DNA of 64,000 nt from Amoebophrya sp. A120 (taxonomy: Eukaryota; Protista; Dinoflagellata): NCBI GenBank assembly GCA_905178155.1, contig CAJINV010000004.1, positions 7,210,548 to 7,274,547 on the forward strand, in the 5' to 3' direction. The translations under genes were made by a program, and so were the position numbers. The notes under the pieces were generated by a model, which made no database searches, had not been told where the DNA came from, and was given only the letters and a program-made list of their open reading frames with translations. Below, in pieces: positions 1,310-23,000 of the stretch (within the stretch, counting starts at the first letter, position 1; each line of letters opens with the position of its first letter).

Positions 1310-3783
1310 CTAGTCACAGCGGGAACTACAGGTGGGACGAGGTTCTCTTCCTTCTTATGGCGTTCTCAAACGTTACATTCTCAACTGTTACATGGATTTG
1401 TCATGCAAATTAGCCATGAATATCTACACGATCAAGCTGCTTCGCATGACAAGTTCGCGACTTGCTAGATCGCATGGGAATCTACGCCAAACCTGTAATG
1501 CAAAAGGCGCAATCTTCCCCTTTTCAATTTTGCCACTCTTGCATTACAAATTCATGTAACAGTTGAGAATGTAACGTTTGAGAATGCCATACTTCTTTTT
1601 CTTTACTTATGATTCGCCTGTGTACGAGTCCTGAGACGTCAATGTGGAAGTCCTCCCAGTAATGCTCGAAACTTTCAGACAGCGCTTTGTACGCGTCCAT
1701 GCTTTTCAACTTTCCAATGAGCTCCGCTTCCGTGGCGGTAGGTTTTGCTCTTTGCATTTCCCTATCAAGTGCAAAAATGTCTGGGTCTGGAAGATTTTGA
1801 GATTTGTCATGCAGGTTCTGCCTGGGCCATGATGTCTGTGATGCATGCCCTAGCATCACAGATTTTTTGAGGCCCTCGCGATGCCTATTCCGCATGACAA
1901 ATGCCCTCTCCGCGTAGCAAAAATTACACTCCCTTTGCTGCTCATGCAATACAGATTTTTTTGGAATCCAAACTCAGCATCACAAGTTGCATTCTTCCAG
2001 ACCCAGACATTTTTACATTTGATATTCCCTCGCCTCCTTCTCCAAGATTTTCCACACTCTCCACCCTCCCTCCGACATACGCATTAGCTATGAAAGCCTC
2101 AGGTTGGCAATCCTCAAAGTGAAAATAATTTGTAATGCAAAAAAGCGACTCCAGTTGGAGCACCATTTCTAGTCGGCGCATGACAAATTTGCCGGGCACT
2201 CAAAACGTGTCTGTCATGCTAGTTAGTCAAAGGGGTGCCCTTCTCTCTTGCTAATCAGCAGCCCGATTCTGAACCCGTAGAAGCACAATAGTCGGCCTCC
2301 ATTGCGTTCGCTGCAATGCAGTCTTTTTGGTGTCGCATTTCATGCATCACAAATCATTTCCACGTTGAGGATTTCCATTCTGAGGGTGTCATATTAGCTG
2401 GCTGCCGCGATCTCTATGTTTTTCCAAAAGGGAACAAGACGCCGCCAATGCGGGCACGAGGACGGTTTTGACGAAGCGAACGCTATCGCTTTGGTCCGCC
2501 GGCACGAAGCCCATCTTGGCCCAGAAAACATGGGCATCGCGCACAGCGTCTAGTTGTAGATCCGAAATTCCTCGTCGCGTTCTGCTTTGAAAAGGAAACC
2601 TCTCGTCGTCCGCGGTCTCGTCGTCCCCAGCGGCGACGTGTTCCGCAGGCTTGTGCAGAGCGTAGTTCATGATTCGGAGCATGAAGAGAAGCCCGGCCCC
2701 TTGTCCCCTTTCTCCAGCTGCGGCAACCTTTTCGATTTTCAAAATGCCTTTTGGAAGTCCATCGTTTTCGCCGGCTATCGGCTCCTCGACCCACTCGCTG
2801 AGAAGAAGCGTTTTTTCGTGTACTTGGAGGTTTTTGTCTTTTCCCTTGAAAGGATTAGTCAAAATTGCACGCTCCAAGAACTCGCCGGAATTTTTATGCG
2901 ACACAAGAGTCGACGACGGTGCCCCATGCGGAGGTACATCGAACTGCAGGAGATACTGAGACCCCTGTTCCAGGTCCAGCTGCTGCATTTTACAGCGACA
3001 TGCGTTCTTTTTCTTTTTCTCCAAGTTCTCCTCGTGTGCCTTCTTCAGCCACGGCGACCGAGCGACAACAGCTGGGATTTTTCGACCCTTAGTACACGAG
3101 GACCCGCTGCCAGCACCTGTAGATGAAGTCACGGCTGGATTTATTTTATCTTGGTCTTCTTGCTCCTGCGCTATCTTGGCTTCCTCTTGTAACACTGTGT
3201 CATTCCCGAAATCTACTAACATGCCCCGTACAAAGTCGATCTGCTTCTGCGTCACTTCCAGAATATCATCGTCTACAACATCTCGATCTCCGTTGGGCAG
3301 GGACGAGCCTGCTTTACTCGGAGGCTTTTCGTCGTAGACTAGACTGGCTTTTGGGCTCACATAGAATAACCGCGGTCCAGCTTTGACGCAAAGCAGGTTG
3401 TTGACAAACTTGTCGCGCTCTTCGGCGCTTGCAACTTCGGCGCCGAAAAAGGTAGCTTTGCGCGCCTCTCCACTGTCTCGTCTAGTTGTACTGGGGTTGA
3501 AGAAATTCAGTTGAACAAATTTGCGCTTTTCTCCTGCTCCTTGGGGATGATCTTCGCCGGAAGTAGAACAACTCGCCCTACTACTGCTTCCGACGGTAGT
3601 CCTACCGCTAGAAGCAGCTGCAGCTGAATGCTCCTCCGTGCCAGAAGTAGGGACCACGGTAGAACTCAAAAAACTGGATGCGTCGATAGAGCTGCCCGAC
3701 ACGCCAACAACGGCCAGACCGGTAAAAACAGCACACCGCACCACAAGCAGGCAGAGGAAGCCGCTGGTGCTGGGGTATATCAT
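1310..3783 (-). CDS. GNAT-family acetyltransferase-like protein with N-terminal signal peptide; 3 introner introns
   Basis: Start MIYPSTSGFLCLLVVRCAVFTGLAVVG; GNAT motifs ERGQGAG and FWAKMGF. Removing 2089-2393, 1763-2024 and 1356-1591 (each plus one DR) gives ...GSQLMRMSEGG...EAREMQRAK...KEKEGREPRPTCSSRCD* in frame. Confidence 0.75.
1356..1591. mobile_element. Introner family D
   Basis: cttct|tatggcgttctcaaacgttacattctcaactg...cagttgagaatgtaacgtttgagaatgccata|cttct. Confidence 0.92.
1763..2024. mobile_element. Introner family C
   Basis: ttccc|tatcaagtgcaaaaatgtctgggtctggaag...cttccagacccagacatttttacatttgata|ttccc. Confidence 0.92.
2089..2393. mobile_element. Introner, family B-related
   Basis: ttagc DR; imperfect TIR of about 50 bp (tatgaaagcctcag / tatgacaccctcag). 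Confidence 0.88.
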
Positions 3784-20000: not shown

Positions 20001-23000
20001 GCTCAAACAGCACTACACTACGAATCCAAATTTGTCATGCAAAACAGCCAAAACTTGTGGATTTGTCTAGCCGATTCCCCATCTTGACTATGGTGTGGGT
20101 ATGTTTTTACTCAGGATACCTCGGCGCTCCGCTTCTGGATCAGCTGCTCGGTACTGTACACTTGCGAGACCGGGGGAAGTATGAACTGCAAAAGCATCGC
20201 ACTTAGTATAAATTGCATTACAAATTAGCTCAGCATTACAAATGAAATTTGTAATGCTGTTTTACCTTAGGAGAGAGATTTGTCATGCATAACAGCAATT
20301 ACTACGAGTACGAAACTAACTTTTGCAGTGCATAGGAAGGACTTCTTTCACTTTCCACTTGTCGTCAGTTTTGTCCTTAATCACCGTTGTGCGCATTTGC
20401 ACGGAGAGCGGCTTCGGCGTCGTCACGGCGGTGTAGGTATGAACTACAAAAGTATCGCACTCGTATAAATGCAGTACAAATTTCCTCAGCATGAGAAATA
20501 AAATTTGTAATGCGGATTTACCTTGAAAAAAAAATTTGTAATGCAGGATTGCAATACGAGTATCAGATACTTTTGCACAGGATAGTAGGTCGGGTTGTTC
20601 CACCAGGCCTGGATGGGCGGCCGGCTCCACAACTCCGTGAACTCGGCGGTCGGCTTCTCCTTTTTCCCCAGCCGCTCCTGGTTTTCGCGCTCCGCATCCT
20701 GCATGTCCAGCCAGAGGTCAAAATCGTCTTTTTCCAGCAACGCGTCGATCTTTTGCAGCACCGCCTGCTCGCCCACGCCGTTCCCGGTCCGCATATGGAT
20801 GCGTCAGGTTTGAAATCAACAAAGTTGAAATAACTTGTAATGCATAAAATGCAGCCCACAAAGTGCCTCTCTTGCAGAGTAGGCAAGTGAGGCAGATTGT
20901 AAGCCTGTTGAGGGGTGGAAACGGAGCTGCTAAAGTAGCATGACAAAAGACGCCTTCCTTACCCAAACAGCATGACAAACTGGGTATCGGCTCTACCCAA
21001 ATTTGTCATGCGCCACTTAGAAACTGGGTTACAACTTTCATCCATTTTATGCATCACAAACTATTTCAACTTTGTTAATTTCAATCCTGACACTCCCATA
21101 CCGCAGGCGCAGCAGCTCCGCCTGCGGATCGCTGTTTACGGAGGTCGCCTTGAGCCGCAACATGTCGAGTATGCATTGCAAATACGTCTTGGTCTGGAGA
21201 TTTGTGATGCTGAACTGAGGATGATGAAAACACTTCCCGATCTGCAGACAAGCATGACAAGTTTATCGCAGAACGGTTTCGCATAGTACGCAGCTCGCAT
21301 GAGAAAGAACTGCGCTCTCGGATCATAAAAGAGGCCGCTACTTTATTCGTTGGTCATGCAATACAGAGTTCTCACAAATGTAAGACCAGCATTACAAGTT
21401 CGAGTTCCAATGTTCCAGACCCAGACACATTTGCACTTCATATCGAGCGCCGTGTCGCCTTCGAAGTTCTTCCTGTCCGGGCCTTTCAGCTTTTCTTCCC
21501 GGAACTTTTTGTCGTCCTTCATCTTCTGCAACTCCGTCCGCATGTAGTAGATTTGCTCCTCTTGCATCCGCTCCTCCTCCTTCTCCCGCTTCTCTTTCAT
21601 GGCCTGCGCCCGTTCCCACTGCTCCTGCGTCGGCTCGCCGTCGGGCCCCCGCTTATTCCCCCGGACGCGCTGCCAGCCGGGTGGGTGGCGGTCTTCCTCT
21701 TTCGCGTCCAAACCAAGTTCGAAGTAAAACTGGTTCGACCCAACCGTGCCCGTTTGCTTTTGTAGTTCACCACTGCTCTCGGCGTCGTCCTCATTGTCAA
21801 CAGCATCGCCGTCGAGCGTCGTTCGCCCTTGCTCCGTGAGAAACTGTGCAGTGTTCGGGAGCCGCGATTTCATGTGCCTCATCCGGATTTCCCCAACGCG
21901 CATGAACTCCTTCTCGTCTTCTTCCTCCGCTCGCATCTGCTGTTTTTCCGCGTCCTCTTTTAGCTCCTCTTCGGTCTTCGGCTTCAAATGCTTCTGGTAA
22001 AAGTCCACCCGCTCCTGCCAGGTCAAGGCCCTGCGGGTCGGCTGCGCGTCCCGGGTGATTTCGTCCAGTCTCCCACTGTTGCTCGGCACGGGATTTTTCA
22101 GTGCCTCCTTGTCGACAGCGGTCAGTTCCTTGCGCAATTTCGAAGCGGCGGTCTTCCGCTTGTGCAAAAAGGTCTGCATCGTGGGGTCATCGATTCCGTC
22201 CTCCTCCGGCTGCGTTTATCCAGTGCAAAAGCATCGCATTTGTAGTCACATGCTTAACCATTAATAATGGAATCGACATGACAAGTTCCAACATTTTATT
22301 TCAATTTCTGTCCGAAGCAGGGTTATTTGTAGTTGCATCTGCAATTTCTACCGAATACGACCCCTTTTGCACTGCATAGCTCCATGCTCGCGGCCACACC
22401 ATCCGCGGACAGCGGCGACTGGGCGAAATCGGGGAGGCTGTAGAAATCCATCCGTTCTTTGGTCTCTTTTCTTTTCTGGTACATGAACTTTCGGGCTTCC
22501 AGGAGGTCGGGGGACGGCGGGTGTTCTTTGATCTTTTCTTCCCGTTCCTTCTTCCTTTTCTGCTCGGCTTTGTCCTTCTGAAGCTTTGCGAACAGCTGCT
22601 TCTGGGTCAGTTTCAAGGACGCGTTATCCTCTTCCGTGCGCCCGGATTCGAGCAGGCCGTGCGCTATGAACTGCAAAAGTATCGAACTCATATAACAGCA
22701 TGAGAAATAAATATAAAATTTGTACTGCGCATTTACCGGTGTAATGCATGACTGCAATACGAGTACGATACTTTTGCACAGGATATGCGCCTTCTCTTCC
22801 TCAATTAGGTCCTCGTAGTCGCCGTCGTCGATCTTGGCGTAGTACTTTTCTTTTTCCTCCTGCGACTTCTCCCTCTGCAGTTGCTCCTCGGACATGCTGC
22901 CCGCCCCTGGCACGCGGTCGAACAGGTTGTGAATCTTGGTGCGGTGGCCCCCGGCGCCTTCCTCGGCGAGGGTTTCCACGTGTCTGGATCCGCTGGTTCC

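Follow-up and report, generated by a model that had tools for sequence, protein, structure and literature searches.

The closest described systems to the elements considered here are the introners of the dinoflagellate Amoebophrya sp. A120 (statements about cited papers refer throughout to the portions of them that were available). Their inverted repeats (IRs) start with TAT, followed by seven looser letters and at least three As, and they have short direct repeats (PMC7789003). A total of 1,954 families have been reported, with repeats of 3-5 nt and mostly placed in an 'Unknown' superfamily (PMC7789003, PMC12130899), and the 58 A120 rows of one supplement give family lengths near 149, 209, 234, 252-262, 278, 305 and 320 bp (PMC12130899). 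Farhat et al. (2021) argue against a general mobilisation of these introns by transposase (PMC7789003). The stretch analysed here, referred to below as the window, is 64 kb of A120 contig CAJINV010000004.1, in which minus-strand genes are interrupted by about 50 elements of 110-310 bp that start with TAT, end with ATA and have terminal inverted repeats (TIRs) and a 5-bp target-site duplication (TSD). Their IR logo, splice donors and family lengths match the published ones (PMC7789003, PMC12130899), and the elements are very likely the published A120 introners.

These elements share, across families with different TIRs, an internal motif, YTGTNATGC, which recurs at a spacing of 31-32 bp, lies at helix-phased distances from the element ends and changes more slowly than its surroundings. 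We lean, if only slightly, toward the view that the introns form a single kin group of non-autonomous DNA transposons and that the motif is the putative site of a common DDE transposase, or of a dedicated partner, on the same helix face as the element tip.

The Elements and the Sample

The sample consisted of the window and 137 loci from one other assembly, found on metagenome contigs with the family A TIR as the query. The loci total 576.5 kb of non-overlapping sequence and overlap with the window in repeats only; eight redundant loci were dropped and one was trimmed, while one element is still double-counted and one same-site pair is present. The caller returned 497 elements (39 in the window and 458 in the loci), and the analysis set was the 490 shorter than 400 bp (38 and 452), which were grouped into 14 families with at least three members, plus small groups. 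Because family A is over-represented, its TIR having been the query, the statistics were run per family.

The elements are about 100-390 bp long and have no coding capacity. Among 670 TIR-matched pairs taken with no TSD filter and scored for lengths up to 8 bp, 283 had an exact 5-bp duplication, as compared to one at 4 bp, four at 3 bp and none at 6 bp. The end logo of the 490 elements reads TAT, S, some loose letters and then AAAA at positions 11-14 (A frequency 0.82-0.93); the caller required the TAT, and a scan demanding only TA recovered it as well. A common terminus, TATSNNNNNNAAAA, is present in all of the families. Empty sites also exist in the window, where two of the elements are missing from a paralogous gene copy and the 5-bp target is there unduplicated; in this duplicated segment (460-1310 / 26180-27480), the second copy has the two extra elements and the first has the empty sites. 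In addition, a 12-bp deletion in the family F element of the first copy (460-1310) takes out part of one motif. Given the TIRs, the constant TSD, the empty sites and the lack of coding capacity, the elements are non-autonomous TIR DNA transposons resembling miniature inverted-repeat transposable elements. Their orientation relative to the gene is near 1:1 overall, with family A skewed 29:49.

A Motif Shared by All Families

The window contains 137 exact copies of YTGTNATGC, as compared to 4.5-5.9 in Markov simulations (maximum 11), and their density within called elements is 10.8 per kb. A preliminary description of this DNA had named sites at 1804/1836, 1946/1977, 6039/6070, 18459/18490, 20505/20536, 7482/7514, 9538/9570, 20835 and 1398, and all of them are present, either exactly or with one mismatch. 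Two further copies that it placed at 21059 and 1549 also exist, but those figures are their far ends, and the copies start at 21051 and 1541. The motif would have lost its interest had it been as frequent outside the elements, and it is not: element-like DNA has 10.7-10.9 copies per kb and the DNA outside has 0.29-0.42, most of the outside matches lying in decayed elements, and intron-poor open reading frames (ORFs) have two copies in 20,052 bp. An exact copy is carried by 35 of the 38 window elements and 438 of the 452 locus elements, with every family represented. The extended site is approximately AAAY-YTGTVATGC-A, and three one-letter variants recur.

Family E has its exact copies all on one strand; six elements read only TTGTNATGC and six only GCATNACAA on the sense strand, as the strand was called from purine skew. 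Since either form can be read on the sense strand and the elements insert both ways, an RNA signal is unlikely.

Spacing between Motifs

Half of the same-strand exact pairs lying 9-70 bp apart in the window (16 of 32) are at 31 or 32 bp, and an exact pair at this spacing is present in 148 of the 452 second-assembly elements. The spacing that the preliminary description had noted is therefore confirmed in the window and replicated in another assembly. By family, nine of the 14 consensus lines have an exact same-strand 31-32 pair (null expectation 0.66), rising to 12 of 14 when the three recurrent variants are allowed (null 1.19), and in 5000 placements no 2-bp distance window matched the 31-32 pair counts. 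Other spacings that recur are divergent pairs at 33-34 bp (four of 14 families, p=0.0004) and convergent pairs at 46-48 bp (four of 14, p=0.001). The length of the 31-33 spacers is kept within 1 bp in 88% of cases versus 77% for 16 other intervals (p=0.003), a difference that is not significant per base (p=0.09).

A general 10.5-bp ladder among the motifs was considered and rejected, as none of the 14 families has motif pairs at 10-11, 20-22, 42-43, 52-53 or 62-63 bp. Because pairs at other multiples of a turn are absent, the motif-to-motif distance is a fixed ruler and not a ladder. Furthermore, 19 spacers of 31-32 bp contain a decayed opposite-strand copy at exactly +16, matching 4.47 of eight letters versus 2.52 +/- 0.28, and none of 5000 shuffles did as well even with the best offset and strand allowed; therefore, 31-32 bp is better read as 2 x 16. 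The proposal that 31-32 bp represents three helical turns, with one protein bound along the same face, thus survives in part: a helix-phased, shared site at the DNA level is supported, but a general three-turn rule is not, given the missing peaks at other turns and the +16 copy. The 16-bp grid itself is seen only partly, as hidden copies are inconsistent in eight convergent and four divergent pairs of 46-50 bp, and spacings of 18, 34 and 49 bp are off the grid. The terminal 10 bp bear a weak resemblance to a decayed motif (3.07 of eight letters).

Distance to the Element Ends

The helical signal lies in the motif-to-end distance, not in the motif-to-motif distance. The first inward copy starts 32-33 bp from the end in families E, F, H, I and L, 40-44 bp in B, C, D, J and N, and 52-55 bp in K and some J elements. 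The periodogram of these distances peaks at 10-10.5 bp (R=0.59, 12 families, p=0.0003; p=0.001 when compared to the best of all periods of 6-14), and with possible relatives removed, the p value is 0.005 for nine family modes and 0.02 for seven. Three separate jumps of one turn are seen: 33 versus 42 bp at the right end of C, 44 versus 55 bp at the right end of J, and 43 versus 53 bp at both ends of B versus K. Compared to its relative B, family K has inserts of about 9-10 bp at each end. The fixed distances that had been noted are thus to be corrected, from 39-42 to 40-44 bp in B, C and D and from 30-32 to 32-33 bp in E, F and H, and there is no single value, since the ladder includes 52-55 bp. 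Families A and G have a different layout, with outer copies that point outward at 34-35, 39 and 43 bp.

Constraint on the Motif and Kinship of the Families

Columns in the motif cores have a conservation of 0.93, as compared to 0.77 in the spacers and 0.74 at the N position. In trees of eight families, the substitution rate relative to spacers is 0.23 on internal and 0.46 on terminal branches for motif cores and 0.21 and 0.50 for TIR positions 9-28, as compared to 1.02 for the N position and 1.05-1.16 for end positions 4-8. On this evidence the motif is constrained like the TIR, most strongly on the lineages that multiplied. Such a pattern is expected for cis-elements of transposition, where selection would act on an element's capacity to be copied. 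At one locus of the second assembly (L010:5600-9200), strongly decayed elements, located by the motif itself, have their motifs and some 31-bp pairs intact, which is suggestive of selection after insertion.

The families had been taken to be unrelated, and this is not the case. They have the common terminus, A and G as well as B and K align end to end, and D-J, B-K and I-K have similarity outside the motifs. When motifs and tips are masked, these three pairs stand out (z 7.2, 6.4 and 4.6, respectively), D and J having a common interior block, and most of the 91 family pairs are at chance. Thus, the concern that interiors might align end to end, the motif then being simple shared ancestry, is justified for A/G and B/K, but most of the 91 pairs show no similarity other than the motif. 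The families would represent one old radiation in which the spacers and TIR positions 15-30 diverged and the motif and its geometry stayed.

The TIRs differ along their length. Segment 15-30 matches at 14.75 of 16 positions between the arms within a family and at 6.4 between families, while positions 4-8 evolve freely and pair poorly (41-79%). The arms co-vary within copies at positions 15-28 in families C, D, E and F (z 3.8-7.4, with subfamily structure as a confounder) and hardly do so in B, I and J; in A/G and B/K, the differences in this segment are gradual and affect the two ends together. On the sense strand, mismatched arm positions show no G-U bias (104 G-U versus 95 A-C). It is plausible that the TIRs are interchangeable provided that they are self-complementary.

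Splicing

Splice joints came from four contig sets guessed to be RNA, none of them recorded as such, in which 15 of 29 joints, in the region 17600-29200, were listed. All 15 of those listed skip exactly the element plus 5 nt (the RNA origin being probable and the end of one element having been set from its joint). When every element plus 5 nt is taken out across 12500-24800, the longest stop-free frame grows from 753 to 2274 amino acids. For the four joints at elements with a decayed TSD or TSD copy (18146-18323, 22217-22378, 23146-23417 and 24265-24426), the sole cut that fits all of them lies, read along the sense strand, 1 nt ahead of the TIR and 4 nt beyond it, and therefore N-T donors are predicted. 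The main donors of A120 are GT, CT, AT and TT (PMC7789003, Table S4), which this cut would explain. Three of the 15 precisely spliced elements have no exact motif, two of them having a single copy with one mismatch, and because of these three the motif array is not needed for splicing.

Two raw RNA runs that carry the same species label gave 33 and 128 reads, which contain no joints. They match only parts of elements, of families C and E (24125-24199 and 20033-20089), at 90-99%; these partial matches suggest related elements in another strain.

What the Motif May Do

If a common transposase reads the motif, a protein multimer would bind the arrays, bridge the two ends and cleave at the tip, whose conserved letters are TAT and, at 11-14, AAA. 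The bound protein would have to face the same side of the helix as the tip, with the first inward site three, four or five turns away, and the family-specific segment 15-28 would be free to drift while both ends stay alike. Splicing would rely on the paired ends, cut at -1 and +4 relative to the element, and do without the array. There is a precedent in P elements, which have internal transposase sites 9 and 21 bp from the TIR (PMC7776569).

Several observations weigh against a common transposase. Scans of 22 window ORFs and of 115 of the 516 locus ORFs gave none (intron-split genes would be missed), five pattern scans that included viral and prokaryotic contigs found neither a transposase nor a longer relative, and Farhat et al. 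found no transposase in A120 (PMC7789003). The end ladder has only three rungs, and the families are related; A and G, the commonest layout in the sample, do not fit it, and family M (three copies) has its first motif at 60 bp. A roughly two-fold constraint persists on the terminal branches, and private insertions are depleted in motifs (4.5 versus 8.0 per 1000 sites), so selection after insertion has to be considered; the residual constraint may reflect either sparse sampling or host selection. Finally, the constraint on segment 15-28 equals that on the motif, and family-specific enzymes would fit this as well.

This last point leads to a tentative alternative, namely that a shared host or accessory DNA protein, bending or architectural, binds the motif, while several transposases each read the family-specific segment 15-28. 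The equal constraint on TIR 9-28 and the motif would agree with such a division, as would a segment 15-30 that is alike between the arms of a family and unlike between families. An accessory site in helical phase with the tip also suits an architectural factor. However, all of the families have the same tip, 5-bp TSD and splice geometry, the segment differences in A/G and B/K are gradual at both ends, the arms co-vary (with the subfamily confounder), and in coding DNA the motif is about as frequent as expected by chance.

Alternatively, the motif could be a DNA mark that the host keeps, with the bound protein bringing the splicing machinery to these non-canonical introns during transcription, whichever way they are oriented. 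We consider this unlikely. The two-fold constraint on terminal branches is in its favor, motifs and the 31-32 and 48 spacings persist in decayed elements that the caller missed (although these elements were found via the motif), one near-copy is left in each of the two most decayed spliced elements, and A120 seemingly has no U1 snRNA (PMC7789003). Nevertheless, the three precisely spliced elements with no exact motif speak against it, and on terminal branches the constraint is half of that on internal ones, in the motif and the TIR alike.

It is quite improbable that the motif and its spacing are mere remnants of an ancestral 16-bp fold-back repeat with no present binding function. The partial homology of the families and the decayed +16 inverted copy, which points to an ancestral alternating array, would agree with this, but it is largely refuted because the motif letters, and not the N position, change 2-4 times more slowly than their neighbors; moreover, most family pairs are alike only in their motifs, and the end distances jump by whole turns. 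Least credible of all is an RNA signal in the intron (a splicing-factor site or a stem), even though end copies extend the terminal hairpin in B, C, D and L and the reverse form contains GCAUG, which we take to be an RBFOX-type word, because the one-strand copies of family E occur both ways on the sense strand and G-U and A-C arm mismatches are about equally common there.

Insertion scars in the copies may bear on a common transposase. Clean insertions within elements are mostly of +3 (131) and +6 (31), as compared to 25 of +2, 28 of +4 and 16 of +5. Of the 29 distinct +6 events, 21 duplicate 5 bp and have one extra base between the two copies (background 0.5%); of the 123 +3 events, 68 are a 2-bp duplication plus one (background 11%). 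Repeats of 5-mers at lag 6 occur at 4.9 per kb in elements and 3.7 per kb in hand-picked intergenic-like window DNA, with 0.6-1.4 at lags 5 and 7. Such +3/+6 insertions were seen in element copies, in intergenic-like stretches (e.g., 30330-33000 and 57250-59100) and in the paralogue pair 460-1310 / 26180-27480. The duplication size of 5 bp suggests that the +6 scars may be excision footprints, or repaired abortive cuts, of the same putative enzyme. They are possibly frame-keeping footprints of 5-bp-TSD elements and a source of low-complexity protein expansions.

A bolder proposal, possible but rather doubtful, is that the approximately 2,000 A120 families form one system with a two-part code, in which a universal, helix-phased 16/32-bp grid would be recognised by one enzyme from a new integrase-like lineage with TAT ends and a 5-bp TSD, and the TIR segments would be exchangeable so long as they match each other; 5-bp staggered cuts by the same enzyme would leave the frame-keeping +6/+3 scars across the genome and drive the unusually fast protein evolution of this parasite. 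If tied to this enzyme, the scars would link intron spread with protein evolution. More generally, a shared, selected, helix-phased site unites the families into which the tens of thousands of non-canonical introns of Amoebophrya have been split. It sets the signals for movement (the motif arrays) apart from those for splicing (the paired ends and the -1/+4 cut), and the array offers a practical DNA bait for isolating the mobilising protein, for which variants of the spacing would be the controls.

Features of the Window

Table 1. Elements and the interrupted host gene in the window; in the cluster at 25775..29088 some element ends were read from the sequence instead of being taken from the caller.
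Feature	Coordinates	Strand	Remarks
Introner, family A	889..1064	.	TSD TGAGC; no exact motif; paralogous to 27042-27215
Introner, family F	1112..1308	.	TSD decayed; inward motifs 32 and 63 bp from right end
Introner, family B	1356..1591	.	TSD CTTCT; inward motif 43 bp from each end
Introner, family C	1763..2024	.	TSD TTCCC; 1804+/1836+ (32 apart), 1946-/1977- (31 apart)
Introner, family D	2089..2393	.	TSD TTAGC; inward motif 42 bp from each end
Introner, family A	5207..5356	.	TSD TCTTC; 5249-/5280- (31 apart), 5296+ 16 further
Introner, family C	6000..6261	.	TSD CGGAC; motifs 6039+/6070+
Introner, family A	7212..7360	.	TSD TGGTG
Introner, family G	7440..7590	.	TSD CTCCT; 7482-/7514-/7548+; layout as A, TIR 15-28 differs
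Introner, family F	7770..7979	.	TSD CGCGA; inward motif 31 bp from left end
Introner, family H	9506..9614	.	Left terminus decayed (TCT); TSD GCAGT; 9538+/9570+; read from sequence
Introner, family C	9814..10066	.	TSD TCGCT; inward motif 42 bp (left end), 33 bp (right end)
Introner, family C	10110..10366	.	Left terminus CAT; TSD CGTTT; read from sequence
Decayed A-like element	10398..10575 (ends approximate)	.	Motifs 10453, 10516; read from sequence
Introner, family E	10711..11001	.	TSD CTTCC; four exact motifs, each TTGTNATGC on sense strand
Introner, family F	13008..13219	.	TSD AGCTG; inward motif 32 bp from right end
Introner, family I	13734..13980	.	TSD TCGCG
Family L element	15889..17551	.	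TSD AGAGG; ~1.5 kb insert with GC-rich tandem repeat of ~85 bp (by eye)
Strongly decayed spliced element	17802..18055	.	No exact motif; one-mismatch copy 46 bp from right end; right end from RNA joint
A-like introner	18146..18323	.	TSD decayed; spliced as element + 5 nt
Introner, family A	18392..18540	.	TSD CCTTT; spliced as element + 5 nt; motifs 18425-, 18459+/18490+
Introner, family C	19083..19350	.	TSD AGAAT; spliced as element + 5 nt; inward motif at 40 and 42 bp
Introner, family E	19839..20118	.	TSD CCTCG; spliced as element + 5 nt; three exact motifs, each GCATNACAA on sense strand
Introner, family A	20180..20334	.	TSD GGAAG; spliced as element + 5 nt
Introner, family A	20438..20584	.	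TSD GTAGG; spliced as element + 5 nt; motifs 20505+/20536+
Introner, family D	20794..21100	.	TSD CCGCA; spliced as element + 5 nt; motifs 20835+, 20938-/20970-, 21003+, 21051-
Introner, family C short-end variant	21170..21442	.	TSD TCGAG; spliced as element + 5 nt; motif 33 bp from end
Decayed A-like introner	22217..22378	.	Spliced as element + 5 nt; no exact motif, one copy with one mismatch
Short family A introner	22665..22785	.	TSD TGCGC; spliced as element + 5 nt; no exact motif
Introner, family C	23146..23417	.	TSD 4/5; spliced as element + 5 nt
Introner, family K	23636..23891	.	TSD TGCGC; spliced as element + 5 nt; motif 53 bp from end
Introner, family C	23956..24209	.	TSD CCTGT; spliced as element + 5 nt
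A-like introner	24265..24426	.	TSD decayed; joint sets cut 1 (or 2) nt before TIR, sense strand
Cluster, part 1	25775..29088	.	G 25775-25925, A 25966-26119, 26256-26446, C 26774-27033, A 27042-27215
Cluster, part 2	25775..29088	.	F 27263-27477, A 27555-27711, A 28355-28514, F 28575-28795, B 28849-29088
Introner, family A	33091..33241	.	TSD ACTGC
Family D and family A elements	37676..38196	.	D 37676-37982; A 38046-38196 (latter read from sequence)
Introner, family A	55786..55935	.	TSD TTCAT
Family H and family A elements	62661..63928	.	H 62661-62769; A 63356-63507, 63550-63694, 63776-63928
Element-interrupted host gene	12500..24800	-	Frame lengthens on removing elements plus 5 nt

Elsewhere in the window, two intronless minus-strand ORFs of about 1,500 amino acids (45977-50473 and 50623-54990) are introner-free amid an introner-rich region, and Pfam gave only weak matches to them, HTH_24 and HicA-type (E 7e-5). 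The minus strand also encodes a RING-finger protein (39196-41217) and a cold-shock-domain protein (41941-43008). Long imperfect inverted repeats of short tandem units at 59283-60624 and 43500-44330 are unrelated to introners, and the latter adjoins an N gap.

Comparison with Known Systems

The elements are already known, and the shared motif, the grid and the end ladder are new as far as the available parts of the sources extend. These three features are not described in the available parts of PMC7789003, PMC12130899 or PMC11282704 or in wider literature searches, although the figures and further supplements of those papers could bear on this. In their available portions, the published A120 accounts mention no shared internal motif, spacing rule or -1/+4 geometry and give a 5-bp TSD for a few families, e.g., fam38 (PMC7789003, PMC12130899). 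An 815-bp family B element in the second assembly (L022:6184-6998), which has an insert of about 570 bp, resembles this fam38, the 'Ginger' family of Gozashti (808-810 bp, TIR 49-53), in length, TIR, TSD and termini, as compared by description (PMC12130899); the retrotransposon homology of fam38 may represent cargo. Similarly, the family L element at 15889-17551 is close in size to fam86 of Gozashti (1619 bp, satellite-containing) (PMC12130899).

Among transposon groups, IS3EU/GingerRoot has TA..TA termini, TIRs and an integrase-like DDE clade, and its termini are those met here; however, its TSD is usually 6 bp and the present one is strictly 5 bp, with none of the 670 pairs at 6 bp (PMC10045372). 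In Ginger2/TDD, whose TSDs are 4-5 bp, TDD-4/5 have a 5-bp TSD, as here, but Ginger termini are TGTNR instead of TAT (PMC2836005). The IS481EU termini, TNT..AYA, also fit, but the TSDs of that group are about 4, 15 or 25 bp as opposed to 5 bp here, where lengths up to 8 bp were scored (PMC10045372). The elements would work like integrase-type TIR transposons but are not placed in IS3EU/GingerRoot, Ginger2/TDD or IS481EU.

The end architecture resembles that of P elements and V(D)J-type ends, in which a short internal site is set apart from the TIR and its distance varies by roughly a turn (9/21 bp and 12/23 spacers, respectively), as it does here (PMC7776569). However, those systems have one site per end and one TIR sequence, whereas the present elements have arrays of two to seven sites through their interior, across families with different TIRs, and double as introns; P elements also have 8-bp TSDs, as compared to 5 bp here (PMC7776569). 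Internal binding sites are ordinary in transposons, but the sharing of one site across TIR families, and its arrangement on a grid, is unusual.

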